From the NCBI GenBank assembly GCA_044221365.1, contig JBGAPH010000017.1, forward strand, positions 31,491-95,490: DNA of 64,000 nt, read 5' to 3'. This DNA comes from Pirellulales bacterium (lineage in GTDB: Bacteria > Planctomycetota > Planctomycetia > Pirellulales > JBGAPH01). Shown piece by piece: positions 19,379 to 52,148 of the stretch (the first letter of the stretch is position 1; every line of letters starts with the position of its first letter). The position numbers and the translations under genes were made by a program. The notes beneath the pieces were generated by a model. It made no database searches, was not told the origin of the DNA, and saw only the letters and a program-made list of their open reading frames with translations.

Positions 19379-20590
19379 ATGCTGTCGATCATTGCCGCTG
19401 ACAATCCGTCTCTCGCTGCGCACCTACAGCGCACCCTCGTGCGCTGCGGCTGCGATTGCCCGCCCGGCAATGTGGTGGCCATCGAATTTGCGCCTCAATT
19501 CTTGGCCGGGCGGGAGCGCAGCGTCGATGCACTGTTCGTCGTGCTCGGAACTGACATCGAGGGGACACTCAAGATATTGCAGCTGTTGCGCGGGGCAACG
19601 CGGGCCAAGCTGGTGGCCGTGGGGCCAACGCACGATCCGCGGTTGATCCTGCGGACCGTACATAGCGGCGCCGACGACTACGTCGACGCCGAAGGCTCGC
19701 TCGACGTGGAACTGCCTGCGCTCCTCAAGCGGCTCCACTCGAATCAGAAGAGCGCAGCCGGCCCCGGTCGGCTGATCGTGGTTACGGGCGCCAGCGGCGG
19801 CAGCGGTCGCAGCCTGCTGGCGGTGAATTTGGCGGCCCTGCTGGCGCAACGCATCGGTCACTGCGGCCTTTGTGACTTTGATCTCCGCAGTGGCGATTTG
19901 GCGGCGTTGCTCAATTTGCGGCCACGGCACACGGTGGCGCATCTGTGCCGCGATCTGGCGAAGCTCGACCAGGCCATGTTCGAACGCTCGCTGCTCGACG
20001 ACCCGAGCGGCATCCGATTGTTGGCCGCGCCCGACTCGCTGGCTGAGGTGGACCAGCTCGACTTCCGCGGCGTGCCGCACCTGCTCAAGCTGGCGCGGCA
20101 GACTCTGCCTTACGTGGTGGTCGACGTCGAGCACTACCTGCGGAAAGAATCACTGCAGACGATGCAGTTGGCCGACGCGGTGCTCGTGGTGCTGCGGCTC
20201 GACTTCGTGTCGCTCCGCGACACACGGCGCTTGCTCGAGGCGATGCTCGAGTTCGGCATCTCGGCCGATTCCATTCAGCTCGTAGCCAACCGCTGCGACG
20301 TGACCCACGACCTCTCGACCGTCAAGGCTCAGGCGGCGCTGGGCCGACCGCTGCGGCATGTGCTGCCCGACGATCCGCAGGCGGCGCTGGTGTCGTTCAA
20401 CACGGGCCGGCCCGCGGCGCTCGATTCGAGCAACAGCCGCCTGGCCAAGGCCTTGGTCAAGCTGACCGACGACGTGCTCACGCAGTTCCCGCCCGCGGGA
20501 GGATGGGCCGCCGCGGCGCCCGAGGCGGCCGCCGCCCGCGCCGGCGCCTTGGCCAGCTTCGCCAATCGCATCAGGGCGGCGCTCACCTAA
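19379..20590 (+). CDS. cpaE: CpaE/TadZ-like pilus assembly ATPase (receiver-like N-domain + ParA/MinD-like domain)
   Basis: Deviant Walker A in IVVTGASGGSGRSLLAVNLAALLA. The context immediately upstream of cpaF supports the call. Confidence 0.78.
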   Translation: MLSIIAADNPSLAAHLQRTLVRCGCDCPPGNVVAIEFAPQFLAGRERSVDALFVVLGTDIEGTLKILQLLRGATRAKLVAVGPTHDPRLILRTVHSGADDYVDAEGSLDVELPALLKRLHSNQKSAAGPGRLIVVTGASGGSGRSLLAVNLAALLAQRIGHCGLCDFDLRSGDLAALLNLRPRHTVAHLCRDLAKLDQAMFERSLLDDPSGIRLLAAPDSLAEVDQLDFRGVPHLLKLARQTLPYVVVDVEHYLRKESLQTMQLADAVLVVLRLDFVSLRDTRRLLEAMLEFGISADSIQLVANRCDVTHDLSTVKAQAALGRPLRHVLPDDPQAALVSFNTGRPAALDSSNSRLAKALVKLTDDVLTQFPPAGGWAAAAPEAAAARAGALASFANRIRAALT

Positions 20591-20617
20591 TCGCTGGCAA
20601 CTCCCGAGGCCGATCCA

Positions 20618-21973
20618 ATGCCCAACAGCGCATTCGCTCCCCTTGACCGTTTGGACGAAGAAGGTCGCTTTCTCTGTCTGAAGAAAGAGCTGCACGCGCG
20701 GCTCATTTCGCACATGGACCTGAAGGCGATCGCCAAGCTCGACGCCCGCGAGCTGCGCGAGGCGCTGCGGACCGGCATCGAGGAGTTGTGCGTCTACCAG
20801 CGCGAACTGTTGAGCCGCGATGAGCAAGAGCGGCTGATCAACGAAGTGATCGACGAGACGCTCGGCCTCGGCCCCCTCGAGCCGCTGCTCCACGATCCGA
20901 CGATCTCCGACATCCTGATCAACGGCCCCAAGACCGTCTACGTCGAGCGGCGCGGCCGGCTCGAACGCACGAACGTGACCTTTCACGACGAACAGCACTT
21001 GCTCGAAATCGTGCAGCGCATCGCCAGCAGGGTGGGGCGGCGGGTCGACGAATCAAGCCCCATGGTCGACGCCCGCCTGCCCGACGGCAGCCGGGTGAAC
21101 GCGGTGATCAGGCCGCTAGCGCTCGACGGCGCGCTGGTCTCGATTCGACGGTTCTCGGCGCGTCCGCTGGGTGCAGCCGACCTGGTGTCGCGCAATTCGG
21201 CCACGCCCGAGATGGTGCAGTTCTTGGCCGCCTGCGTGCGGTCGCGGCTCAACGTGATGATTTCCGGCGGCACGGGCAGCGGCAAGACGACGCTGCTGAA
21301 CATCCTCTCGAGCTTCATCCCCGAAGACGAACGGATCGCCACGATCGAAGACGCGGCGGAGCTGCAACTGCAGCAGCCGCACGTCGCCCGCATGGAAACG
21401 CGCCCCGCGAATCTCGAAGGCAATGGCGAAGTGACGGCCCGCGATCTCGTGCGCAACGCCTTGCGGATGCGCCCCGACCGCATTCTCGTCGGCGAGTGCC
21501 GCGGGGCCGAGGCCTTCGACATGCTCCAAGCGATGAACACCGGGCACAACGGCAGCCTGACCACGATCCACGCCAATGAAGCGCGCGACGCCGTCGGTCG
21601 CCTGGAAATGCTCGTTGGAATGGCGGGCTACGAACTGCCGCTGTGGTTCATCCAGCGGCAGATCGCCTCGGCGATTCAGATCGTGGTGCAGACTTGTCGC
21701 CTCGCCGGCGGCGTGCGGCGGATCACGCAGATTTCCGAGATCACGGGGCTGCAAGGCGAAGTGATCAGCATGCACGACGTGTTTCGTTTCGAACAGACCG
21801 GGGTCGACGACAAGCTCAACGCAGTGGGCCAATACCACGCCACCGGCGTGCGGCCCCGCTGCCTAGAGCTGTTCCGCACCGCAGGCATTGATCTTGAGCC
21901 CCAGTTGTTCGAGCGCCGCGAACTCACTTGGAACCGGCTGAACAACCAGAACCCGCTGATGGAACGCTCATGA
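20618..21973 (+). CDS. cpaF: CpaF/TadA secretion ATPase (type II/IV secretion NTPase family)
   Basis: Walker [59 protein letters not shown]. Confidence 0.92.
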
Positions 21974-22926
21974 ACCCGCTCTTGGTTTCGTTGTCGACGT
22001 TCGCGGGCGTCACCCTGGCGGTGCTGGGGGGCTGCAGCCTGGTGTTCGACGTGCTGCTGCGCGACCGGGCGCGGATCAACACGCGGTTCCGCGAAGAGTT
22101 CCTGGAAAAGGTGCGGCAGCGCGAGAAGCGCTCGGCGCTGTTCAAGGACCCCGACCGGTTGGCCCGCGAAGTGGCAGGCGGGTCGCCTGGGCTCGACTAC
22201 CGGCTGGAAACGGCGGTCGAGCAGTCGGGGCTGCTCGTCACCTGGCAACAGGTCGGCACGATGGCGATCGGCGCCGGCGTCGCGGCTGCCAGCGTTGTGG
22301 CCGTGATCACTCGGAACTGGCCAATGGCGATTCTGGCTGGCGTCGCGGGACTCATTTCGCCGCCGGGATATGTAGCCCATAAGCGACGGCAGCGGCTCAG
22401 CCGGTTGCGCGCCCAACTTCCCGAGGCCTTCGAGCTGATGAGTCGCAGCGTGCAATCGGGGCAAACGATTCCTGCGGCATTTCAGACGATCGCCGACGAC
22501 TTCGACGCGCCGCTCGCCGAGGAGTTTGCCCGCTGCCACGAACAGCAGAACCTCGGGCTCCCCTACGAAGTGGCTTTGCGCGAGTTGGCCCGCCGGACGG
22601 GGGTGGTCGAGCTGCAAATGTTCGTCGTCGCCCTGCTCGTGCAGCGCAAGTGCGGCGGCAGCCCCGTGGAGCTGCTGGGCAACCTGGCCACCGTGATGCG
22701 CAAACGCTTGAGCCTGCGCGGCAAGGTGCGGGCTCTAACCGGCGAGGGGCGCATGCAGGCGTTCGTGCTGCTGCTCTTGCCGGTTGGCATGTTCGCCGCC
22801 ATCTGGTTCATCGACCCCACATATGCCGGCGTGCTCTGGGACCGCCCGAAGCTGTTGTTCGGCGCGCTGGCGGCCGAAATGGTGGGGGCGGTGTGGATCC
22901 GGCGGATCGTCAATTTCGACTTTTGA
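21970..22926 (+). CDS. tadB: TadB-like pilus platform membrane protein (T2SS F family)
   Basis: The ATG overlaps the cpaF stop (ATGA). [37 protein letters not shown]...ALRELARR, with C-terminal TM helices. Confidence 0.8.
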
Positions 22927-22936
22927 GGCAGTGGTC

Positions 22937-23884
22937 ATGACTTGGGACACGATCATCATCCAGGCGTTCGCCTTTGCGGCGGTGTTCAGCCTCGTGTGGT
23001 TCGTCGCGCTGCAACTGCGCCCCGATACGCAGGCGGTCGACGATCGCTTGAGTGAACTGGCCAAGACCGGCAGCGTGAAGGCCGACTTCGGGCCTCCCGC
23101 CGCGGGTTCGCGCTGGGCCCACGTAAGCACGCGGCTGTTGCCCGACAGCCAAGCCGAACGCACGGCATTGCAAGCGCGGCTCAACCAGGCGGGCATCTAT
23201 TCCTCCCTGGGGCTCACCGTCTACCTCGTGGTCAAGCTCGCGCTGATGATCACGCCGATGCTCGTCGCCGTATCGCTGGCCGCGGCCGGCGTGGCCAGCC
23301 TGAATCTTTGCACTTCGCTCGGCGCCCTAGCCGGCGCGGTGGGCATGGTGCTGCCGGCATTGTGGCTCGACCGGCGGCGCGAGCGGTGGAGGAACACCCT
23401 CCGCCGCTCGCTGCCCGACTATCTCGACCTGATCACGGCCTGTGTCGAGAGCGGCCTGAGTTTTGAGGGCTCGATGCAGAAGGCGACGGACGAACTGCAC
23501 ACGGCGCATCCCGCGCTTGCGCGGGAGCTGGTGCTCGTGCAGCGCGAGATCGAACTCGGAGCGCCGCCGGAGAAGGCGCTGCGCGGCTTTGCCGAACGCA
23601 CGGGGCTCGAGGGGCTTCGCTCACTGGCGACCGTGGTCCAGCAGTCGCGGCGGTACGGCACCGGCATCGCCGAGGCTTTGCGCGTCCATTCCGACATGCT
23701 CCGCATGCACCGCGAGCAGCGGGCCGAGGAGCTGGCGCAGAAAGCCGCCGTAAAGATCCTCTTTCCCACCTTAGTTTGCATCTTTCCCGCGATTTTTATC
23801 GTGCTGGCTGGTCCGGCAGCGATTCAAATTCAAGAGCGCTTTGCCGACATGCGAGTCTCGTCCGATGTAGAGGCCAAGCGATGA
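22937..23884 (+). CDS. tadC: TadC-like pilus platform membrane protein (T2SS F family)
   Basis: LPDYLDLITACVESGLSFEGSMQKATDEL..ELVLVQREIELGAPPEKALRGFAER. ATG at 22937. Confidence 0.8.
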   Translation: MTWDTIIIQAFAFAAVFSLVWFVALQLRPDTQAVDDRLSELAKTGSVKADFGPPAAGSRWAHVSTRLLPDSQAERTALQARLNQAGIYSSLGLTVYLVVKLALMITPMLVAVSLAAAGVASLNLCTSLGALAGAVGMVLPALWLDRRRERWRNTLRRSLPDYLDLITACVESGLSFEGSMQKATDELHTAHPALARELVLVQREIELGAPPEKALRGFAERTGLEGLRSLATVVQQSRRYGTGIAEALRVHSDMLRMHREQRAEELAQKAAVKILFPTLVCIFPAIFIVLAGPAAIQIQERFADMRVSSDVEAKR

Positions 23885-24309
23885 TCAGCACGCGGAGTCG
23901 CACGACTCGAACAAACGGCGCGGCGGCCCTGGAAATGACGTTCGTTTTGCCCGTGCTGCTCACGGTGGCGCTGGCCTGCGTAGATCTGGGCCGTTATGCC
24001 CATGCTTCACTCGCGCTCTCGAACGCCGTGCGCATCGGCGCGGAATGGGGCGCCGGACGCACCGTTACGAGCTTCACTCAGCCCGATTGGGAGGAGCAGA
24101 TCGTGGAACTGGTTCAGACGGAGATGGCCCAACTCAACGGCGTCGACCTTTCGAAGCTGGTCGTGCAGGTCGCGTCGATCGACGAAGGCAACAAGCTTCA
24201 TCGCACCGAGGTGCAGGGGAGCTACCCGTTCACCACGATCGTCAATTGGCCGGCCTTCCCGCACCAGATCAACATGGAGCGCCGGCATGCGATGCACCAA
24301 ATGCGCTAG
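23881..24309 (+). CDS. TadE-like pseudopilin/minor pilin
   Basis: The ATG overlaps the tadC stop (ATGA). TadE N-terminal motif GAAALEMTFVLPVLLTVALACVDLG. Confidence 0.7.
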   Translation: MISTRSRTTRTNGAAALEMTFVLPVLLTVALACVDLGRYAHASLALSNAVRIGAEWGAGRTVTSFTQPDWEEQIVELVQTEMAQLNGVDLSKLVVQVASIDEGNKLHRTEVQGSYPFTTIVNWPAFPHQINMERRHAMHQMR

Positions 24310-24751
24310 TCGCCAGTCGGTTCGGCGCGGCGCCGCGCTCGTCGAAGGGGCGATCGTGCTGGGCATTTACCTGTTTCTCCTGGCAGGCATGCTCGACATG
24401 GGGCTGGCCGTGTTGCACTACAACACCGCTTCCGAGGCGGCGCGACGTTTGGCCCGCAGCGCCGTGGTGCGCGGCGAAGAAGCTGCGCCCGAAATGGGCG
24501 CCTGGGGAACCGGCAACTACGTGGGCCGCGCCGACGACGGTTCGCCCCAGGCGTTGGCTGTGCAGCCGATCCTGGGACCGGTGCGCCCCGACCGCGTGGC
24601 GCTGCAGCTCGAGTGGCCCGACGCCGGCAACGCGCTCGAGGACCGGGTGCGGGCCACCGTGACGATTACGTACCGTCCGGCGCTCACGCTCGTGTTCGGC
24701 GGAACGCCGTTCACGTTGACGGCCCGCTCGACGATGAACATTGCGCACTAG
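24287..24751 (+). CDS. TadE-like pseudopilin/minor pilin (second)
   Basis: RRGAALVEGAIVLGIYLFLLAGMLDMGLAV. Overlaps the previous gene by 23 nt. Confidence 0.65.
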   Translation: MRCTKCASRQSVRRGAALVEGAIVLGIYLFLLAGMLDMGLAVLHYNTASEAARRLARSAVVRGEEAAPEMGAWGTGNYVGRADDGSPQALAVQPILGPVRPDRVALQLEWPDAGNALEDRVRATVTITYRPALTLVFGGTPFTLTARSTMNIAH

Positions 24752-24760
24752 AACCCGCCC

Positions 24761-26266
24761 ATGAAGACGCAACCCCACTTGAGACGCTGTTGCCCGCTCG
24801 CCCGCGGACGCGCGCGTTCCGGCAAGATCTTAGCGCTGTTTGCCCTCTCTTTGCCGGCGACGTTGGTCTTTGCCGGGCTCGTACTGGACGGCGGCAGCCT
24901 GCTCACTCAGGCCCGCTCGTCGCAGCATGCCGCCGACGCTGCGGCCACCGCGGCCGCCATGCTGCGGTTTCAAGGTAAGACCGTGGCCGAAGCCACCGCC
25001 ATCGCCGAACGCTACGTGCACCAGCACAACGGCCTGCCGCAGGCCGTTGTCACGTTGTACACCCCTCCCACCAAGGGCCCCTATGCGGGGCAGTCAAAGT
25101 TCGTCGAAGTGGTTGTCGATCAGCCGGTCGAAACTCATCTAGTTCACTTGTTCGGAGGCAATAAGGTTCAGCATGTCTATGCCCGGGCCGTGGCGGGTTA
25201 CGAAGACTCGACCGCCCCCTCGGCGCTCGTGGTGCTCGATCCTTCGCCGGCGCCGATCACGGTGCCGCCGATCCCCGTGTTGCTGCCGCCGGCGCCGGTG
25301 CTGCTAGGAGGGATCGAGGTGTTGGGCTTGGGCGCCCTCAAGGTCGATGGCGCCGTGCTTGTCAACAACGAATGGGGACACAAGGACGAAAACGGGCGTC
25401 GCGCCGGCACGATTGCCGGCCCCCCCTACGGGCTCTCCTGCACGCCGCTCGTGAATCTGACGAAGCTCCGCGCCCGCGACATCCGCGTCGTGGGGGGCGT
25501 TGACAACCCAAAGAACTACGGAAACTTCACCTCCGGTAAGAGCAGCCCGCTGCGGGCCAATCGACGCCCCGTGCCTGACCCCTACGAGGATCTGCCGGCG
25601 CCGACATTTTCTTCTGGCGGCGCGAACGTCAGCGGCAGCTACTACGGCGGCAAAACGATCGTCGGAGTTCCCCTGATCACGCCCCCCACGGTGCTGCACC
25701 CTGGCGTGTACGACTACATCACCATCGTTTCGGGAAGCGTCATCTTCCAGCCCGGCATCTATATCATTCGCAGCAAGCACCCGGTTACGCAGATGTCGTT
25801 GAGCCTGGTGGTGGGCCAGGTGACCGCCGAAGGGGTGATGTTCTATATCACCGACAGCGCGGGCTATTCGCCTGGCTCGGGTCTGCCCGACGGAAACGAC
25901 GGCGAAACCGAGCCGGCGACGCCCGGCGTCCTCGATTTGGTTCCGAGCACGGTGCTCAACGTGGGGCTGCTGGGCAGCCGCTTCTCGCCGCTCGACGCAC
26001 CCGGCAGTCCGTTTCACGGCATGTTGCTCTACCAGCGGCGGGCCGATCGGCGGCCGATCGTGATCGTGCAGGAGAATCTCCTTCCCGGCACGCTCTTCAA
26101 AGGGCGGGTCTACGCCAAGTGGGGACATGTGATTCTCGCGGGTTTGGGCGGAACTTACGACGCCAGCTTCGTATGCGGCTCGTTCCGCAGCCTGGTCGTC
26201 ACGGACTGCACACTGGCCCCCAGCAATCCGCTGCCCCCTGCGCAGGATGTGTTCCTCGTAGAATAG
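24761..26266 (+). CDS. TadG-like protein (Tad N-terminal pilin-like segment + large beta-rich C-terminal region)
   Basis: SGKILALFALSLPATLVFAGLVLDGGSLLTQARSSQHAADAAATAAA. I recognise no vWA motif in the C-terminal part. Confidence 0.7.
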   Translation: MKTQPHLRRCCPLARGRARSGKILALFALSLPATLVFAGLVLDGGSLLTQARSSQHAADAAATAAAMLRFQGKTVAEATAIAERYVHQHNGLPQAVVTLYTPPTKGPYAGQSKFVEVVVDQPVETHLVHLFGGNKVQHVYARAVAGYEDSTAPSALVVLDPSPAPITVPPIPVLLPPAPVLLGGIEVLGLGALKVDGAVLVNNEWGHKDENGRRAGTIAGPPYGLSCTPLVNLTKLRARDIRVVGGVDNPKNYGNFTSGKSSPLRANRRPVPDPYEDLPAPTFSSGGANVSGSYYGGKTIVGVPLITPPTVLHPGVYDYITIVSGSVIFQPGIYIIRSKHPVTQMSLSLVVGQVTAEGVMFYITDSAGYSPGSGLPDGNDGETEPATPGVLDLVPSTVLNVGLLGSRFSPLDAPGSPFHGMLLYQRRADRRPIVIVQENLLPGTLFKGRVYAKWGHVILAGLGGTYDASFVCGSFRSLVVTDCTLAPSNPLPPAQDVFLVE

Positions 26267-27032: not shown

Positions 27033-27989
27033 CTAGTTCTTGTCTGAGTTAGGCGCCCCGCCGGCGGCTTCGCCTGCGGTGACGACGCCGGTCTTCGAAC
27101 GCTGTTCGGCCTCCGCGCGGATCTTACGCTGCGCCTCCTTCAGCCGCTCCGGCCAGGCGAACTTGGGCGCGGTGCCTGGGTCATAGCCCGCCAAGTGTCC
27201 CTCGAGCCGCGTGGTGGGCTTGGTGTAGACGAGCTTCGTTTCCCCGAAGACCTCGCGGCACAGATCGGCCAGGCCCGGGTCGTACTCGATCAGTTCCGCC
27301 CGCGTGTCGACGTGGTTGTGGTCGTGGTCAGGCGGGCGGTTGTTGTCGAACCAGGACTGCACACCTTCGGCAAAGTACTCGTGGTGGTTGACCGAGGCGT
27401 ACTTTCCCTTCCATAAGCCGGCCTGCATGGCCGCTTCGTAGGCCGCCTTGAGCCGGCCGTCGAACGTCGGGTCGACGCGCACCATGCCGCGCAGGTGGAT
27501 GTTATGGGCGAATTCGTGGATCAGAATGTTTTCGGCGGCATAGGGATCCCCCTCGTAGGCGAGCAAGTTCTCTTCTGCACAACTGCACACGGGATCGGTC
27601 TCCGAGCCGCCCAACCCTCGGGCCCGGGCATCCCAGTAATCCTTGGGCTTCAGCCAGGCGTGCTCGGGCATGTCGGTCGTGTATTCGTTGCAGCCGATGA
27701 TGAGCAGCCGCGAGCCGCTCGACGCCATGGCCCGCTTGACGTCGGGGCGATGGGCCAGCAGCAGCTTGACCAGGTAGGCCGCTTCACGGAGCGCGTAGTC
27801 ATTGACGCGCGCCGAAGCCACGATCGGATAGCCGTCGGCGTCGATGTACTTCTGATAGAAGTCGGGGGCCTTGAGCTCAGCCGGGGGCGGCGTGATTGGC
27901 GCGAGTGAGGCCCCGTTCTCGCCGTGCGCCCTTGCGGCGCCCAACACGGCCAGGCAGAGAGCCCAGGGATAGATCTGCACTCGGGTCAT
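27033..27989 (-). CDS. Secreted HEXXH protein (putative zinc metallopeptidase-like)
   Basis: ATG at 27989 gives the signal peptide MTRVQIYPWALCLAVLGAARA. Motif ENILIHEFAHNIHLRG plus a downstream HHEYFAEG. The track start at 28013 is a GTG. Confidence 0.7.
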   Translation of the reverse strand: MTRVQIYPWALCLAVLGAARAHGENGASLAPITPPPAELKAPDFYQKYIDADGYPIVASARVNDYALREAAYLVKLLLAHRPDVKRAMASSGSRLLIIGCNEYTTDMPEHAWLKPKDYWDARARGLGGSETDPVCSCAEENLLAYEGDPYAAENILIHEFAHNIHLRGMVRVDPTFDGRLKAAYEAAMQAGLWKGKYASVNHHEYFAEGVQSWFDNNRPPDHDHNHVDTRAELIEYDPGLADLCREVFGETKLVYTKPTTRLEGHLAGYDPGTAPKFAWPERLKEAQRKIRAEAEQRSKTGVVTAGEAAGGAPNSDKN

Positions 27990-28256
27990 GTCGCCAGCCC
28001 TTTTGTTCGCCACGTGCGCGGAGGGATTCGCTGCGTAGCGGCCATTCTAGCTCCCTTCGCAGCCCCGAACAAAAGCCCTGGCGCGTAGCCATTCGACTAG
28101 GGAAGCGAGCTTAGCCGCATCCGGCTTTGCGAGGGATGCCGCGGCGCGGTAAAGTAGCGGGCGTCGGCAGTTGGGGCAGATGCGCTCGCCCCGGCTGCCG
28201 CCTGTGTTGACCGCTTCACCGCTCGTTCCCGGCCACCTGCGCGGAGCCCCTTAGGC

Positions 28257-28619
28257 ATGCCGATCGTCAAGTTCGTGAAGGAGAAGAAGGAGATCGAGGT
28301 CCCCACCGGCGCCAACCTCCGCAAGGAAGCGCTGCGGGCGGGGATTGCGCTCTATCCGGGCGTTCACAAGGTCTTCAACTGCCACGGCCTGTCGAACTGC
28401 GGCTCGTGCCGGGTCAACATCACCCAGGGCATCGAGAACGCGGGAGACGCCTGGTCGGCCCCTTGGAACAAGCTCGAGAAGATCCGCCTCGGCATGTCGC
28501 TCGCGTACATCGGCAACGAGGCCACGATGCGACTGGCCTGCCAGGTGAGCGTCGACGGCGACATGTCGGTGGAAACGCAGCCGCCGATGAACCTTTACGG
28601 CGAAAACTTCTTCAGCTAG
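28257..28619 (+). CDS. (2Fe-2S)-binding ferredoxin-like protein
   Basis: Cys pattern NCHGLSNCGSC ... LACQ (C-x5-C-x2-C ... C) in a roughly 120-aa beta-grasp-sized protein. Confidence 0.72.
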   Translation: MPIVKFVKEKKEIEVPTGANLRKEALRAGIALYPGVHKVFNCHGLSNCGSCRVNITQGIENAGDAWSAPWNKLEKIRLGMSLAYIGNEATMRLACQVSVDGDMSVETQPPMNLYGENFFS

Positions 28620-28656
28620 CCGGCCGCTGGGTCCCCGCGTCGTTCGCAGTCGCTCC

Positions 28657-28977
28657 ATGAAGCAGGTCATCGCCATCGTCAAGCCGTTCCTCGTCGAGAA
28701 GGTGCTCGAGGGGCTCAAGCGGGCGCCGCTCGAAGCCTGCACGGTCCGCGAGGTGAAGGGCTTCGGGCGGCAGAAAAGCTATCTCGACCAATACGCCGAC
28801 ACCGAGTATTCGCTGGCGTTCCTCCCCAAGGTGGAGATCAGCCTCTGGGTCGACGACTCGCGCGTCGAAGAGATCGTGCGGCGGATCGTGCAAGCGGCCC
28901 GCACCGGGCGGATGGGGGATGGCAAAGTGTTCGTCGTGCCGACCGCGACGCCGGCCCAGGTGATCGACATTGGATAG
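28657..28977 (+). CDS. P-II family signal-transduction protein (GlnB/GlnK-like)
   Basis: MKQVIAIVKPF, T-loop GFGRQKSYLDQYADTEY, B-loop TGRMGDGKVFVVP. Confidence 0.85.
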   Translation: MKQVIAIVKPFLVEKVLEGLKRAPLEACTVREVKGFGRQKSYLDQYADTEYSLAFLPKVEISLWVDDSRVEEIVRRIVQAARTGRMGDGKVFVVPTATPAQVIDIG

Positions 28978-30293
28978 TGCGTGAATTGGCGCGCACGCGG
29001 AACGGTACCATGCCCTTTGCCTTCCCCAGCAGCGAAATCGCCCTCTGGACGATGGCCATTGGCGTGGCGGCCAATCTTTCGTCGGCCTTGGTGGGTTGCT
29101 TCCTCGTGCTGCGACGGATGAGCTTGCTGGGCGACGCCATTAGCCACGCGGTGTTGCCGGGGATCGTCGCCGGCTTTTTGCTGACCGGCGTTCTCGGCGG
29201 CTGGCCGGCGCTCCTGGGGGCCCTGGTCTTCGGCGTGCTCACCTCGCTGCTCACGCAAACTCTGCACGAGTTGGGCCGCGTGCCGGAAGACGCCAGCATG
29301 GGCGTGGTGTTCACGTCGCTGTTTGCGCTCGGCGTCGTGTTGATCACGCGGTTTGCCGCGCACGTCGACCTCGACCCCGGCTGCGTGCTCTATGGGCTGC
29401 TCGAGTTCGCCCCGCTCGACACGGTGCGGCTGGCCGGCGTAGACGTTCCCCGCGCGCTGCTCACGCTGGGACCGGTGCTGCTGCTCACGGTCGGCTTCGT
29501 GGCCGTGCTCTGGAAGGAACTCAAGATCGCCTCGTTCGATCCGGGCCTGGCCACGGCGATGGGTTTTTCTGCCCGGCTGATCCACTATCTGCTGATGTGC
29601 CTGGTGGCGCTCGTGGTGGTGGCGTCGTTCGAGGCGGTGGGCTCGATCCTCGTGGTGGCGATGCTGATCGTGCCGGGGGCGACCGCGCGCCTGCTGACCG
29701 ACCGGCTGGGTTGGCTGCTGGTTTGGGCCGCCGTGGTGGCCGTGGTGTCGGCGATCGGCGGCTACCTCGCGGCGGTAGCGCTCAATACGTCGGCCGCCGG
29801 CATGATGGCCGTGGTGGCCGGGGCACAGTTCACCTTGGCAGTCTTTGTGGCTCCGCGCCATGGCTTAATCGCCCGGGCGCTGCGCCAGTTGAACCTTTCC
29901 ATGCGGATCGCCGGCGAAGACATCGTGGCGCAGCTTTACCGGCAAGAGGAAGCTGCGGCCGAGGGCCTGGCCCCCGCGCCGCTCTCGCCATCAGACCGGA
30001 ATGCCCTCGTCACTTGGCTCGCGACCCGTTGGCTGAATTCGAAGGGGCTCGTAACGCCGGGGCGCGGGCGGGGGGCAACCCTTACGGAAGCGGGGCGCGA
30101 GCAAGCCCGCTCGGTGGTGCGGGCCCATCGGTTATGGGAATCCTACTTGGGGCAGCACTTCGATCTGCCGCTCGACCATTTGCACGCCCCCGCCGAGCGC
30201 ATCGAGCACTTCTTGGGGCCCATGCTGCAGGCCGAACTGGCCGCCGAGCTGGAAGGCCCGGGCCGCGACCCGCACGGCAAAGAGATCCCGTAG
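28977..30293 (+). CDS. ABC-3 family metal (Mn/Zn/Fe) transporter permease fused to a C-terminal DtxR/MntR-like metalloregulator domain (YtgC-YtgR-like)
   Basis: The N-terminal roughly 290 aa are multi-TM with LGDAISHAVLPGIVAGFLL. The C-terminus has ..LTEAGREQARSVVRAHRLWESYLGQHFDLPLDHLHAPAERIEHFL...GRDPHGKEIP. The GTG at 28977 overlaps the P-II stop by 1 nt; an alternative ATG is at 29010. Confidence 0.85.
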   Translation: MRELARTRNGTMPFAFPSSEIALWTMAIGVAANLSSALVGCFLVLRRMSLLGDAISHAVLPGIVAGFLLTGVLGGWPALLGALVFGVLTSLLTQTLHELGRVPEDASMGVVFTSLFALGVVLITRFAAHVDLDPGCVLYGLLEFAPLDTVRLAGVDVPRALLTLGPVLLLTVGFVAVLWKELKIASFDPGLATAMGFSARLIHYLLMCLVALVVVASFEAVGSILVVAMLIVPGATARLLTDRLGWLLVWAAVVAVVSAIGGYLAAVALNTSAAGMMAVVAGAQFTLAVFVAPRHGLIARALRQLNLSMRIAGEDIVAQLYRQEEAAAEGLAPAPLSPSDRNALVTWLATRWLNSKGLVTPGRGRGATLTEAGREQARSVVRAHRLWESYLGQHFDLPLDHLHAPAERIEHFLGPMLQAELAAELEGPGRDPHGKEIP

Positions 30294-30896
30294 CGCCGAG
30301 GCGCCCCCGAGCGCCTCTCCGTTGTACGATCGTGCGGCACAGCGTAAGCCAGCGTGTGCCGTTCCGCGGCAGCTTGCAGAGCGCGCGTGTGAGCTCCTTC
30401 GAGAGGGCGCCATCCCTCGCTGAGAGGAGTTCCCGGCTTGGGACGCCAAACAACCCCAAGCACGGCCCGCAAAAAACTGCGCAAAAAAGACGTAAGTGGC
30501 TGCCAGTGTTGATTTGCCGCGATATGGCCTAGCGCGATCTCTCATCTGCTGCGCGCTCGTGGCACGGGCCTTGCTTTCCTCTACCAGCGTCAGCAAACTC
30601 CCCATCGCTTGTAGGAAGACAAATCCCATTCAATGCCGTGAGTTCTCGCGGCGAAAAAACGGCGGTTTCAGCCGGTTCCTCACGGGCTGAAACTCGGGTC
30701 ATGGAAGCCGCAGTCGCCTGAAGGTTGTCGATCCCGCGGATCGAGCCAGGCGATTGGCCGAGCGAGGTTGGCCGAGCGCGGCTCGGCACGATCGCGGAAA
30801 AACATGAGCGCGGCCTTCATCCCGGAGTGCGGCGGGTCACTGCCTGCTCGCTGCTTCACCACCTTGTCGCACGACACGTCCGCCTCCGGTTTGGGC

Positions 30897-30936
30897 GGGG
30901 CCCGGTTCGCCGGGCCCCCCCCCGCGTTGTTTTTCT
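30897..30936 (+). terminator. Intrinsic-terminator-like hairpin in the gene-free region upstream of rpoD
   Basis: GGGGCCCGG TTCG CCGGGCCCC followed by CCCCCGCGTTGTTTTTCT. No convincing ORF ends just upstream. Confidence 0.45.
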
Positions 30937-31211
30937 CGCGCGCTGTGTTTCCGCGTCGATGTCGCCCGGCGGCCACACTCGGCGCCGCCGTTCGTTGCGA
31001 ATTGGCCACGTTCCCCCGCCCGCAGGGCCCGGCAGGGACCTTGGGGCGGGAAGAGTAAGGTCTGTTCCGTCAATGGCTTAGCGGCTGCCCTCGCCTGAGC
31101 ATCGCTCCCCCGGCACTGAAACTGCGAAACCACAGCGGCTACCAGGCTTGCCCCCATCGAGGGCGCTCGGCCGTCGCCTACGAGATCTCAAGCGCGAGAA
31201 AGGAACGACCC

Positions 31212-32864
<1,653 letters not shown>

Positions 32865-49055: not shown

Positions 49056-52000
49056 CTACCAATAAACCCACCGCTGAAACAACTCCCGCTCCCTCTTCGG
49101 CAGCGCTTCCACGTCGGGCACCAAGTAGCGGTTGTCCTCCAGGTCCACGATCACCTTGCCGCGGGCGCCGAAGTCTTGGACTTGGGTTTGGGTCCAGCGC
49201 ATCGTGAATCGCGTCGGGCCTTGCTCCGTGCGGACCTTGAACTCCAGGTAGCCGTATTCGAGCGTGATCGAGTCGATCGCGTTGATTCTGCGCTGCAGCG
49301 ACCGACGGCCGAGGGCTTGGCGGACCAGGGCTTGGCTCTCGGCTGGCCAGTCGTTCAGGTCGCGGATCAGGCCGAGTTCTTGTTCCTTCCCGTCCGCGTC
49401 CCAGGTGCGGAGGCTGATGAATTCGTGCGGCCGCGTGGCGGGGAAGGATTGGACGGCGAAGATGCCGCGATGGAGCGTGGACGGCGCGGACGCGTCTGGT
49501 TGTGAAGGGACGGGTTCGTCGCGGTCTTGTTCCGCGAGAGTTTGTGTCGCCCTTTCAGGGCTCATTCCATTCGAATGGGCCGTTTCCAGGGGCTTGCGCC
49601 CCTGGCTAACCTCTGGGCGCCCCTGTCGGGGCTCATGCGGCGAGTTTGTATTCAGGGCGCGTTCAAATAGCTCAAGCGTGATCGCTTGCCGCGGGGCGGC
49701 GTGGAGTTTGGCCGTGGCGGGGTCGAGCCAGCGGGGGGCGAAGGTGGCGCTCTGCGCCTCCGGCTGCGCTTCGTCTGACGAGGGTACTTCGTCGAGTTCG
49801 TCCCAATCGGCGCCTTCCAGCGCCGCCTCGAAGCGTTTGTTCCGGGCAACCTGCGTCTGAATCCGCACGAGCCTGGCATAGGTGCCGTCGAGGCGCATCA
49901 GCTCGTCGTGCGAGCCGTTTTCGATCAGCCGGCCGTCGTCGAACACGAGGATGCGGTCGGAGTTCCGCAGCGTGCTCAGCCGGTGGGCGATGGCCAGCGT
50001 GGTGCGGCCGCGCGAGAGGACCTCGAGGGCTTCTTGAATCGACTTCTCGCTCTCGGTGTCGACGCTGCTCGTGGCCTCGTCGAGCACCAGCACCTTCGGG
50101 TCGTAAAGCAGCGCGCGGGCGATCGACATCCGCTGCCGCTCGCCGCCCGAAAGGCCGGCTCCGCGCTCGCCGAGCCAGGTGTCGTAGCCCAGCGAGGTGC
50201 GGAGGATGAACTCGTGGGCCTGCGCGGCGCGGGCTGCGGCGATCGCCTCTTCCGGCGTGGCCTCGGGGCGGCCGTAAAGCAGGTTTTCGAGAATCGTGCC
50301 GCGGAACAGAAACGGCTCCTGCAGCACCACGCCTACGTGCTGCCGCAGGTCGGCCGTGGCCAGCTGCCGCACGTCGACGCCGTCGAGCAGCACGCGGCCG
50401 GTGTCGACATCGTAGAAGCGGCTGATCAGGTTCACGAGCGTCGTCTTGCCGGAACCGCTGCGGCCCACGATGCCGATCTTCTCGCCCGGCCGCACGGTGA
50501 AGCTCACGTCCTTGAGCACCGGGCGGTGCCGCTCGTAGCCGAACGACACGTTCTCAAAGCGGATCTCGCCCTCGGACTGGGCGAGCCGCTGCGGCGTGGC
50601 TGCGTCGCGCGTTTCGGTCGGAGTGTCGATCACTTCGAACACCCGCTGGCAGCCGGTCAGGAAGCTCGTGAGCCAGGTCGTGAGCTGGCTGAGGGTGCTG
50701 AGCGGAGCGTAGAACATGGCCAGGTAGGCCAGGAAGGCCATCAGCGAGCCGAGGGTCATTTCGCCGGCCAGCACGTCTCGCCCGCCGACATACCAGACGA
50801 TCAGCCCGCCCATGCTGAAGACGAGCGCCATCACGGCGGTGAACGACGTAGCCGCACCTTCGACCGTGGTCCGCGAGGTGCGCAGGTTTTCGCTTGCCCG
50901 CTGGAATTGGTCGAACTCGCGATCCTCCTGCGCAAAGGCCTTCACCACGCGAATGCCAGAGAGCATGCCCGAAAGGCGGCCGGCCTGCTTATGGCTCGAG
51001 TCCCAGTAGCGGTAGTAATTGGGATACACGCGCCGCCAAAAGAACAGGCTGCCGCCGATGACGAACGGCGCGGGGATGAGCGTGTAGAGGGCCAGCTTGG
51101 GGTTGAGCGTAAACAGCATCACGCCGACGCCGATCACCTGCACGATCTGCAAGAGGAAGCCGCCCGTGATCTGCTGAAGCAGGCTGTGCAGCACCTCGCT
51201 GTCGTAGGCGACGCGGCTGACGAGCGAGCCCACCTGATGCCGGTCGTAGTAACCGACGCCGAGGGCATGGAGCTTGCAGACGAGCTGTGCCCGCAGATCG
51301 AAGGTGAGGGCGACGCCCACCTTGTTGGCCAACAGCCCCTTAGCCCAGCTCACGAACCCCAGCAGCACGCGGGCGGCAGCCAGCGCGAGCACCACGAGCA
51401 GCAGCGTTTGCAGGAAAGACGTGGGGTCGGGCGTCTTCGAGCCGCCGGCCAGGATGTCGTCGACCAGGTACTGCTGCAGCTTCGGCGGCGCAAGCTCGAT
51501 CGCCACGCCGACGAGCATGAGCCCACACATGGCCAAGGCCGGCGCCCACTGCGGACGGACCATGTGCCAGAGCCGGGCGACGATCGCCTTCCGCGGCAAG
51601 CAGCGCGGGCACGATTCATCGGCTACCGGCAGCCGCAAGTTGCACTGCGGGCAGTGCGTGGTCTGCTTGCTGACGGGACGCGGCGAGACTTCGCCTTTGC
51701 TGCGGAGTTCCTCGAGCTGTTCGGCGAGCTGGTGGAACCGCGCGCTGTGAGTATTCGAGTAACGGGCGACATCGACCCAGGCGCCGTCTACGTAGCCTTG
51801 CAGCAGTCCCGAGCCGATGCCTCCTTGGGCGCGGAACTTTTCGACCTCGGCCAGCGGCAGATGGTCGACGAGCGTGGGCTCGGCCGTGGCGTCGACGACG
51901 GCCAAGTTGTCTTGGGTGACGACGATCCAATGATCGCGGGGCTCGCCGGCGAGCGAGAGATCGCTGGTGGTGGAGAGGAGAACCGGCACACCGTTGAGCT

Positions 52001-52148
52001 GCTGGTTTTCGAGCAGCTCGTGCACCGCGCAAGGCACAGCTTCCTTGAGCATTTCGGGCGAGAGAATCCCACGAGGCGGACGGACCAACGGAATGCCCAC
52101 GAGCACGCCATCCGACGGCGCCCGCGGGAGCAAAGAAACCGAACACAA
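49056..52148 (-). CDS. Multidomain ABC exporter: N-terminal PH-like domain + Zn-ribbon + 6-TM exporter domain + NBD + C-terminal DUF1854-like domain
   Basis: HCPQCNLRLPVADESCPRC. The TMD looks type I exporter-like. Walker A GRSGSGKTTLVN, signature LSGGERQRMSIARAL, Walker B VLVLDEATSSVD. The C-terminal ..FISLRTWDADGKEQELGLIRDLNDWP..IDSITLEYGYLEFKV..RFTMRW..ELFQRWVYW resembles DUF1854. The start is uncertain: TTG at 52148 or ATG at 52052. Confidence 0.85.
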   Translation of the reverse strand: MCSVSLLPRAPSDGVLVGIPLVRPPRGILSPEMLKEAVPCAVHELLENQQLNGVPVLLSTTSDLSLAGEPRDHWIVVTQDNLAVVDATAEPTLVDHLPLAEVEKFRAQGGIGSGLLQGYVDGAWVDVARYSNTHSARFHQLAEQLEELRSKGEVSPRPVSKQTTHCPQCNLRLPVADESCPRCLPRKAIVARLWHMVRPQWAPALAMCGLMLVGVAIELAPPKLQQYLVDDILAGGSKTPDPTSFLQTLLLVVLALAAARVLLGFVSWAKGLLANKVGVALTFDLRAQLVCKLHALGVGYYDRHQVGSLVSRVAYDSEVLHSLLQQITGGFLLQIVQVIGVGVMLFTLNPKLALYTLIPAPFVIGGSLFFWRRVYPNYYRYWDSSHKQAGRLSGMLSGIRVVKAFAQEDREFDQFQRASENLRTSRTTVEGAATSFTAVMALVFSMGGLIVWYVGGRDVLAGEMTLGSLMAFLAYLAMFYAPLSTLSQLTTWLTSFLTGCQRVFEVIDTPTETRDAATPQRLAQSEGEIRFENVSFGYERHRPVLKDVSFTVRPGEKIGIVGRSGSGKTTLVNLISRFYDVDTGRVLLDGVDVRQLATADLRQHVGVVLQEPFLFRGTILENLLYGRPEATPEEAIAAARAAQAHEFILRTSLGYDTWLGERGAGLSGGERQRMSIARALLYDPKVLVLDEATSSVDTESEKSIQEALEVLSRGRTTLAIAHRLSTLRNSDRILVFDDGRLIENGSHDELMRLDGTYARLVRIQTQVARNKRFEAALEGADWDELDEVPSSDEAQPEAQSATFAPRWLDPATAKLHAAPRQAITLELFERALNTNSPHEPRQGRPEVSQGRKPLETAHSNGMSPERATQTLAEQDRDEPVPSQPDASAPSTLHRGIFAVQSFPATRPHEFISLRTWDADGKEQELGLIRDLNDWPAESQALVRQALGRRSLQRRINAIDSITLEYGYLEFKVRTEQGPTRFTMRWTQTQVQDFGARGKVIVDLEDNRYLVPDVEALPKRERELFQRWVYW
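49548..49660. repeat. REP-like palindrome cluster lying in frame inside the ABC exporter gene
   Basis: Three short palindromes: CCCTTTCAGGG, CCAGGGGCTTGCGCCCCTGG, GCCCCTGTCGGGGC. The stretch CCAGGGGCTTGCGCCCCTGGCTAACCTCTGGGCGCCCC closely resembles the reverse complement of intergenic 48170-48220. Confidence 0.6.

Follow-up and report, generated by a model that had tools for sequence, protein, structure and literature searches.

The closest described relative of the protein considered here is YtgC (CT069) of Chlamydia trachomatis, a component of the ytgABCD system in which an N-terminal ABC-3 permease is joined to a DtxR-family module whose metal ligands are conserved. YtgC is the only Chlamydia permease for which a fusion is described (PMC5599777). 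A second group of known systems is formed by P-II proteins that pair with membrane transporters, such as GlnK with AmtB and SbtB with SbtA. In this study, we analyzed a locus in which both themes appear to meet. It lies in 64,000 nucleotides (nt) of contig JBGAPH010000017.1 from a Pirellulales bacterium (assembly GCA_044221365.1), and this whole stretch is referred to below as the window. Three open reading frames (ORFs), all on the plus strand, encode a [2Fe-2S] ferredoxin-like protein, a short P-II protein, and an ABC-3 permease fused to a DtxR/MntR-like module.

The original prediction, made from this DNA alone, proposed that the P-II protein is coupled to the metal permease-repressor and regulates it, which would have added metal transporter-regulators, as a new class, to the targets of P-II. 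The three genes and their domains are present as claimed (ORF calls, Pfam), and the resemblance to the YtgC-YtgR architecture holds in Pfam, profile, and fold comparisons. The proposed coupling itself fails against related genomes. We read the locus, with a probability of roughly 0.8, as a species-specific juxtaposition of two unrelated units, one being a ferredoxin/P-II gene pair and the other a single permease gene that has been relocated next to it. Residues of the fusion are numbered here on the 438-amino-acid (aa) ORF opened by GTG 28977; subtraction of 11 gives the numbering of the 427-aa protein.

Synteny and the P-II/permease junction

Fusion loci were collected by a scan with an alignment of the fusion, keeping one genome per GTDB species, which gave 80 loci, each flanked by as much as 10 kb on either side. 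When these were searched by tblastn with the window P-II, the 10 kb around the fusion held no P-II gene at any of the 80, and tblastn returned one weak and distant ferredoxin-like match. From the other side, 86 ferredoxin loci were examined for a nearby ABC-3 permease, and none had one. The gene order of the window recurs only in near-identical strains (L001/L169, L170, and L171); of this order, at least the P-II/fusion junction is also visible on the short contig L172. Thus the three-gene synteny that was to be looked for in other Planctomycetes is not conserved; only its ferredoxin/P-II part is.

In a sister lineage (JGI sample 3300036393), the two units are found apart. The ferredoxin and P-II genes, the latter encoding a protein 98% identical to that of the window, lie on contig _00493 (L174) and are followed by a SpoU methylase gene, while the orthologue of the fusion (88% identity, L002) lies on contig _00378 amid unrelated genes without a P-II. 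We infer from the common sample and from the similarity that both contigs belong to one genome. Loci L173 and L174 share the order ferredoxin, P-II, SpoU methylase, PEGA. Homology between the window and L174 DNA spans exactly 28223-28977 and that between the window and L002 exactly 29022-30293, so that the breakpoints coincide with the P-II stop and the ends of the fusion coding sequence. Since these breakpoints fall at gene edges and the two units occupy separate contigs in the sister lineage, the arrangement in the window is best explained by the recent relocation of a single gene.

The overlap of 1 nt (TAGTG) between the P-II stop and the permease start, on which the idea of coupling was built, turned out to be an artefact of choosing the longest ORF; the start lies 32 nt past the P-II stop. 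In an alignment of 30 sequences that includes the window protein, homologue N-termini lie 10-17 residues ahead of a conserved WT motif, matching the product of ATG 29010, and the N-terminus of the 88% orthologue is MPAFLSGFPSSELALWT. The NCBI annotation of a 98%-identical fusion protein from a metagenome-assembled genome (MAG) gives it 427 aa. The start at GTG 28977 was rejected on the basis of the homologue N-termini, the boundary of DNA homology to the orthologue at 29022, and the insertions and deletions (indels) among strains. As judged from these comparisons, the permease gene starts at ATG 29010.

The junction alignment of five strains shows how little the intervening DNA is constrained. 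The spacer of the window and of L170 measures 32 nt. An inserted 51-nt perfect palindrome lengthens it to 83 nt in L001 and L171, and in L172, which has TAA as the P-II stop and no GTG, it is 16 nt long. The indels are not multiples of three, and identity among the strains picks up again exactly at CC-ATG-CC. With three spacer lengths and conservation only from the ATG, the spacer is therefore non-coding and unconstrained for translational coupling. The palindrome (L001:9931-9981, also in L171) reads GGTCCGCGAGAGCGGACCCTAC AG TAGGGTCCGCTCTCGCGGACC in strain DNA that is ~92% identical to the window, and the L001 spacer is predicted to fold into a hairpin of -60 kcal/mol (z = -10). Its identity as a repeated element resembling repetitive extragenic palindromes (REP) or miniature inverted-repeat transposable elements (MITE) was considered and rejected, as no second copy was found in the window.

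It could still be argued that the ferredoxin, P-II, and permease::DtxR genes form one functional, translationally coupled operon, with P-II gating the metal permease-repressor in the manner of GlnK and AmtB. The genes are co-oriented, with spacers of only 37 nt (ferredoxin to P-II) and 32 nt (P-II to permease), no independent promoter is recognizable ahead of 29010, and the order is common to the near-identical strains. However, this proposal has to contend with the null counts in both searches (0/80 and 0/86), with the separate contigs and gene-edge breakpoints of the sister lineage, with an overlap start codon that is not conserved, and with a spacer that carries frame-breaking indels and, in L001, a very stable hairpin. 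We consider such an operon highly improbable, and at the level of conservation the coupled-operon model is refuted. In contrast to the GlnK-AmtB and SbtB-SbtA pairs, the conserved neighbour of the window P-II is a 2Fe-2S ferredoxin, and not amtB, glnA, or any transporter gene.

One consideration speaks against regarding the two units as wholly independent in this bacterium. Because the spacer is only 16-83 nt long and holds no recognizable promoter, transcription of unit 1 (28257-28977) probably reads through into unit 2 (29010-30293); a generic sigma-70 scan of positions 27900-30700 gave no promoter, and terminator-like matches were at chance level. Co-transcription of P-II and the fusion is likely in this species, and a species-specific regulatory effect is possible. 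Nonetheless, the locus is no basis for a claim that P-II controls metal uptake. It is rather a worked example of how a longest-ORF start, together with adjacency in a single genome, can mimic translational coupling.

Table 1. Positions of the features discussed in the text, counted from the first nucleotide of the window.
Feature	Position	Strand	Remarks
Promoter-like element of the ferredoxin/P-II unit	28123-28160	+	-35-like TTTGCG at 28127-28132, -10-like TAAAGT at 28150-28155; inferred
[2Fe-2S] ferredoxin-like ORF	28257-28619	+	120 aa
Short P-II ORF	28657-28977	+	106 aa
Non-coding spacer, P-II stop to permease start	28978-29009	+	alignment of five strains
ORF of ABC-3 permease with DtxR-like module	29010-30293	+	427 aa from ATG 29010; 438 aa if GTG 28977
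ABC-3 transmembrane domain	29037-29849	+	PF00950, residues 21-291 of the 438-aa ORF
C-terminal DtxR/MntR-like module	29904-30290	+	helix alpha-1, degenerate helix-turn-helix and wing, metal-binding/dimerization domain
Tad/Flp-type pilus cluster	~19400-26266	+	inferred from gene calls of the collinear MAG locus L001
326-aa protein gene	27033-28013	-	divergent from the ferredoxin gene
Stretch from fusion stop to sigma-70 gene	30294-31211		918 nt
Sigma-70 (RpoD-like) gene	31212-32864		550 aa
ABC exporter gene	49056-52148	-	1030 aa; ABC_membrane + ABC_tran, C-terminal DUF1854 domain

The ferredoxin/P-II gene pair

The conserved unit is the ferredoxin and P-II gene pair, not P-II and the permease. 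Ferredoxin loci came from context look-ups and from a metagenome scan that contributed 80 of them; 86 entered the permease search described above, and 79 were evaluable for a P-II neighbour. In 58 of the 79, the gene next downstream and on the same strand encodes P-II, the gap being -3 to 233 nt; when divergent arrangements are counted as well, 74 have P-II within 1.4 kb. The two genes often overlap or stand only tens of nucleotides apart. Stop and start abut or overlap (gap -3 or 0 nt) in eight of the 58 tandem pairs. At 90% aa identity the ferredoxin loci fall into 26 clusters, 24 with a P-II neighbour and two cut by contig ends. The reverse search, starting from P-II homologues, placed a ferredoxin gene directly upstream in L173, L174, L176, and L177. 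The genes flanking the pair vary by lineage.

The region upstream of the ferredoxin gene is also shared. A CTGGAAGG-N16-GGCTACAGTATCGG motif stands ahead of the gene in 57 of the 72 distinct loci compared, and the clade of the window has a variant, TTTGCG-N17-TAAAGT (28127-28155), at the same relative position. The longer pattern GGCTTTGC...GGTA(A/G)AGTAGYGG is common to the window, L001, and the sister-lineage loci L173-L175. Matches to a strict sigma-54 consensus were absent upstream of the ferredoxin genes.

In 69 loci, the gene for a protein of ~86 aa stands divergently upstream of the ferredoxin gene (e.g., L087:4656-4916 (-) and L083:2762-3022 (-)), at a distance of 80-130 nt in nearly all of them and of 260-261 or 1979 nt in three exceptions. 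It makes up a recurrent trio with the ferredoxin and P-II genes, and the shared intergenic region carries GGCTACAGTATCGG. In the divergent arrangements, P-II is on the same strand as the ~86-aa gene and beyond its usual place, as read from coordinates only, with gene calls unchecked. Pfam and PDB searches assigned the ~86-aa protein to no significant family, and the window contains no copy of its gene.

The ferredoxin-like protein belongs to a tight planctomycetal family of ~115-aa proteins, with 1609 homologues and 62-97% identity among the matches listed. Its match to Pfam Fer2 is marginal (22.4 bits against a cut-off of 21). In an alignment of 28 diverse family sequences, C42, C48, C51, and C95 are invariant in a C-x5-C-x2-C...C pattern, and so is the C-terminal tail LYGENFFS, whose final residues (..G-E-N-F-F-S) are encoded at 28604-28616 in the window. 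Such an invariant tail is unusual for ferredoxins and suggests a docking peptide. An AlphaFold2 (AF2) model of moderate quality, with a mean predicted local distance difference test (pLDDT) score of 70, points together with Foldseek to a beta-grasp ferredoxin fold, the best matches being 2Fe-2S ferredoxins of the iron-sulfur cluster (ISC)/adrenodoxin type at template modelling (TM) scores of 0.6-0.7. They include P. putida FdxB (3ah7; E = 3e-5, TM 0.63-0.68) and E. coli Fdx (1i7h). The window protein shares with these ferredoxins the predicted fold and the four-Cys ligand pattern of a predicted cluster, but it is only 21-28% identical to the top solved ones (ranks 1-5), and its family differs from them in having the invariant LYGENFFS tail and an obligatory P-II neighbour. 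By sequence, the top PDB match is the chloroplast NDH subunit PnsB3 (E = 0.0013); the similarity to PnsB3 and to Azotobacter FeSII is weak.

The P-II protein had been called canonical, which is correct for its sensing core and not for its tail. It matches PF00543 with 70.7 bits and H. seropedicae GlnB with 95 bits and ~53% identity over residues 1-95, and alignment to GlnB structures and to its own subfamily shows that R38, Q39, Y46, the T-loop Y51, K58, and the B-loop TGRMGDGK (TGxxGDGK) are kept. Canonical P-II proteins are ~112 aa long, and their R101 and R103 contact the ATP phosphates. The window protein ends at residue 106 (..AQVIDIG; ..VIDF in the subfamily) without the R101/R103 segment, and scores of 95.2 against 181 bits and 88.5 against 202 bits leave it below the NCBIfam GlnB/GlnK equivalog cut-offs. 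It belongs to a planctomycetal subfamily of 102-106 aa with 77-89% identity and a characteristic conserved T-loop, GYGRQKSYLDQYADSEYSLAFLPK. Thus, it is a member of the P-II fold family with a GlnB-like core and differs from GlnB and GlnK in its C-terminal truncation.

From the gene linkage we infer a joint function of the ferredoxin and P-II proteins. In this view the P-II trimer, whose T-loop/B-loop pocket is intact, would sense adenylate and 2-oxoglutarate status, with the ferredoxin acting as its target or supplying a redox signal to it. On this basis we tentatively propose, with rather less than even confidence, that the ferredoxin and the short P-II make up an undescribed signaling module dedicated to Planctomycetota, in which the 2Fe-2S protein may bind the P-II trimer directly as receptor or redox input and the ~86-aa protein may be a third member in many lineages. 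A full-text literature search of incomplete coverage found no description of the pair. Two points weigh against the proposal. A physical partnership is a prediction from gene linkage, and the ligand set of this P-II is uncertain because the C-terminal ATP-contacting arginines are missing.

The two proteins may instead be merely co-expressed and not interact physically, the ferredoxin serving, for example, enzymes of nitrogen assimilation. Linkage as such cannot separate co-regulation from complex formation, and the sensing core of the P-II is GlnB-like. However, the linkage is near-universal and exclusive although the flanking genes vary, stop and start abut or overlap in some of the tandem pairs, and the ferredoxin tail is invariant. 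As none of these observations is decisive, co-expression without contact is a possibility to be taken seriously, if one we would not bet on.

The orphan permease and its DtxR-like module

The fusion protein matches ABC-3 (PF00950) with 163 bits over residues 21-291 and Fe_dep_repr_C (PF02742) with 71.6 bits over residues 370-438, and its NCBIfam permease matches (SloB, AztB, and ZnuB-type) all remain under the equivalog cut-offs. It has 7270 homologues, of which the top 120 all carry both PF00950 and PF02742, and some are labelled permease / DtxR-family regulator in IMG. Among the 67 fusion loci with at least 4 kb of upstream sequence, on which operon structure was evaluated, 62 have genes for a ZnuA-family binding protein, an ATP-binding cassette (ABC) ATPase, and a first permease (permease-1) directly upstream of the fusion. 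By sequence, the window fusion is the 'permease-2' type of this planctomycetal four-gene operon, a subunit of a Mn/Fe/Zn-type ABC-3 importer (cluster A-I), and belongs to the known YtgC-like family, most of whose members thus resemble Chlamydia YtgC in standing in a binding-protein/ATPase/two-permease operon.

The window gene differs from YtgC in being an orphan, with neither partners nor operator. Only L024, L054, and L058 among the 67 evaluable loci carry orphan fusions, and the 88% orthologue in L002 is an orphan too. Searches by tblastn with partners from canonical loci found no binding protein, second ABC-3 permease, or matching ATPase, which bears out across the 64-kb window the earlier remark that no transporter partners are adjacent. 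Two other ABC ATPases of the window were considered as partners and rejected, one being of the MacB/FtsX type and the other an ABC_membrane + DUF1854 exporter. The partners of the permease (binding protein, ATPase, perhaps permease-1) would be encoded elsewhere in the genome.

The missing partners within 64 kb and the rarity of the orphan state might also indicate a functionless, decaying remnant left after loss or rearrangement of the operon. Yet the 427-codon ORF is intact, the window protein has the family residue at every invariant column of the 30-sequence alignment, and the ratio of nonsynonymous to synonymous substitution rates (dN/dS) between the window fusion and its 88% orphan orthologue is ~0.045 at a dS of ~1.3. 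A decaying remnant is therefore hardly credible. A pseudogene reading was rejected on the same dN/dS value, on account of which we regard the orphan fusion as functional and under purifying selection.

The presence of the fusion in a planctomycete had been ascribed to shared ancestry within the Planctomycetes-Verrucomicrobia-Chlamydiae (PVC) superphylum. This argument is weak, as the fusion extends beyond that superphylum. By their record labels, scan records that match through the C-terminal module (to query residues 435-438) come from Desulfobacterales, Spirochaetia, Omnitrophota, Krumholzibacteriia, Verrucomicrobia, and Kiritimatiellia, and a passage of the review PMC5599777 cites Thompson et al. 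2012 for fusions of this kind across 11 phyla.

A profile of the C-terminal ~150 aa finds DR2539 (1.1e-21) and IdeR and DtxR (~1e-17) in the PDB over chain residues ~5 to ~137. In both profile and predicted fold, the module is colinear with the two-domain DtxR/IdeR/DR2539 repressors over ~130 aa. The AF2 model (pLDDT 82.5) has a long helix alpha-1 continuous with the membrane domain, then an unstructured stretch of 14 residues (model residues 34-47) at the position of alpha-2, a disordered Pro/Ala loop, followed by alpha-3, a beta-hairpin wing, and alpha-4 to alpha-6. Foldseek aligns it with DR2539 (PDB 8pvt, 8pw0), IdeR, and DtxR at TM ~0.7 and 25-39% identity.

The predicted metal ligands are D315, H384, E388, H403, E407, E410, and H411. 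These D/H/E/H/E/E/H positions were mapped by inspection, and we take them to correspond to M10/H79/E83/H98/C102/E105/H106 of DtxR. All but position 407 are kept in 69-71 of 71 homologues, and 407 itself may be E, H, D, or M; E or D at the place of DtxR C102 is presumably a Mn-type pattern. The DNA-binding part is far less uniform. Across the 71 homologues, the mean frequency of the top residue is 0.24 in the alpha-2 region, 0.43 in alpha-3, and 0.35 in the wing, against 0.57 in alpha-1 and 0.62 in alpha-4. In the clade of the window, the alpha-2 position is a hypervariable, gappy Pro/Ala loop, and the N-terminal helix-turn-helix (HTH) model PF01325 matches neither the window protein nor any of the top 120 homologues. 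The claim of a complete DtxR domain is thus upheld for colinearity, fold, and the PF02742 match, but is in doubt for the HTH, which is the least conserved part, has no detectable PF01325, and has a disordered loop for alpha-2.

The other permease of the canonical operons bears such a module as well. Permease-1 has a C-terminal extension of ~150 aa that aligns with the DtxR-like module and conserves a distinct set of ligands, namely H or N at 315, H384, E388, D403, D407, E410, and H411. Both transmembrane subunits of the canonical operon thus bear paralogous DtxR-like modules (L003-L082; e.g., L009:8703-10022 and L035:8363-9913).

We compared 63 canonical operons for palindromes and adjacent regulators. 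AT-rich palindromes occur upstream of the binding-protein gene in 40 of them, as ATGTAGC-N4-GCTACAT (class A, 15 loci) or TTTTGA-N4-TCAAAA (class B, 25 loci), the latter often in tandem with two copies exactly 22 nt apart. They lie up to ~400 nt, mostly 30-250 nt, ahead of the region that matches the gene for the ZnuA-type binding protein (e.g., L078:6669-6702 and L055:700-737). The recognition-helix (alpha-3) region of the fused module varies among loci that have a palindrome class in common. A stand-alone DtxR/MntR regulator, 30-56% identical to DR2539, stands beside the operon in 26 of the 63 loci (e.g., L035:5910-6293 (-), L064:6072-6452 (+), and L012:6192-6578 (-)); these regulators align from the N-terminus, HTH included, and most are divergent from the binding-protein gene. 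No Fur-family regulator was found beside the canonical operons. In the window, an operator of the DtxR type, which was to be looked for upstream of 28257, was found neither there nor upstream of 29010: AT-rich palindromes, class A or B sites, and DtxR boxes with up to three mismatches are absent, and the only inverted repeats there are short and GC-rich. Neither the Rfam nor the tRNA scan, both covering the entire window, returned a match, so that no Mn riboswitch or similar element was found.

Known ABC importers offer a model for what the fused module might do. In the trans-inhibited MetNI, through its C2 domains, and ModBC, a substrate-binding cytoplasmic domain dimerizes and locks the importer. 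By analogy, the fused module would be a tethered cytoplasmic metal sensor that dimerizes on metal binding and throttles import in cis, forming a homodimer in the window and a dimer with the paralogous permease-1 module in ordinary operons. The concept is the same, but in MetNI and ModBC the sensor is on the ATPase subunits, whereas here it would be on the transmembrane subunits and derive from a transcription-factor fold. We favor this tethered sensor over a released repressor of the YtgR type, at about even odds, because the ligands are invariant, the HTH is degenerate, alpha-3 is not conserved within a palindrome class, stand-alone regulators accompany 26 of 63 operons, and permease-1 bears a module of its own. 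The modules on both canonical permeases could conceivably act as a built-in heterodimeric metal sensor that gates the ABC importer in cis.

The competing possibility is that the module works as in Chlamydia, that is, as a cleaved or tethered metal-dependent repressor of transporter genes. It is colinear with complete two-domain repressors of the same predicted fold, its predicted ligands are invariant, and Chlamydia provides an experimental precedent. Several observations weigh on this side and against the tethered sensor. YtgC, the sole relative studied experimentally, does release a DNA-binding repressor (PMC5599777, PMC6504234). Palindromes precede the binding-protein gene in most of the operons, 37 of the 63 loci lack an adjacent stand-alone regulator, so that the module could repress there, and many family members outside the clade of the window retain an alpha-2-like segment. 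Nevertheless, a repressor without a detectable PF01325 in the window protein or the top 120 homologues, with a hypervariable loop for alpha-2 in this clade and a recognition-helix region that differs widely within one palindrome class, would be peculiar, and a normal DtxR/MntR regulator is already at hand in 26 of 63 loci. In addition, the region around 28-30.3 kb of the window has no palindrome of either class and no DtxR consensus box. We therefore consider a repressor function the less likely of the two, and continue to prefer the tethered sensor.

Compared with the DtxR/MntR/IdeR regulators, represented by DR2539, the window module has the same predicted fold over ~130 residues and occupies the equivalent ligand positions, but it is joined to a membrane permease through helix alpha-1, lacks the SH3-like third domain, and has poorly conserved alpha-2 and alpha-3. 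In contrast to the Chlamydia system, the planctomycetal fusion with DtxR-type ligands is the last gene of its operon and the other permease also carries a module; the HTH is degenerate and an additional stand-alone regulator is present in 26 of 63 loci.

Neighbouring features and implications

The Tad/Flp-type pilus cluster comprises genes for a ParA-like ATPase, a T2SSE ATPase, two T2SSF proteins, two TadE proteins, and a Tad-domain protein. The 326-aa protein has an N-terminal hydrophobic, signal-like segment and the motif HEFAHNIH (HExxH), and its sole family match, to Peptidase_M90, is weak and sub-threshold (16 bits). The 918-nt stretch between the fusion and the sigma-70 gene gave no Rfam match and only weak terminator-like sites, and the homologous stretch of L001 has no called gene.

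With respect to metal transport, the occurrence of DtxR-like modules, often on both permeases, together with a separate regulator calls into question the generality of the 'cleaved repressor' model derived from Chlamydia. With respect to P-II signaling, nitrogen and energy signaling in Planctomycetota are, to our knowledge, largely unstudied, and the ferredoxin, as a near-obligate neighbour of P-II, is a concrete candidate for a new P-II partner. If true, direct binding between the ferredoxin and P-II would couple electron and redox status to the sensing of adenylates and 2-oxoglutarate.

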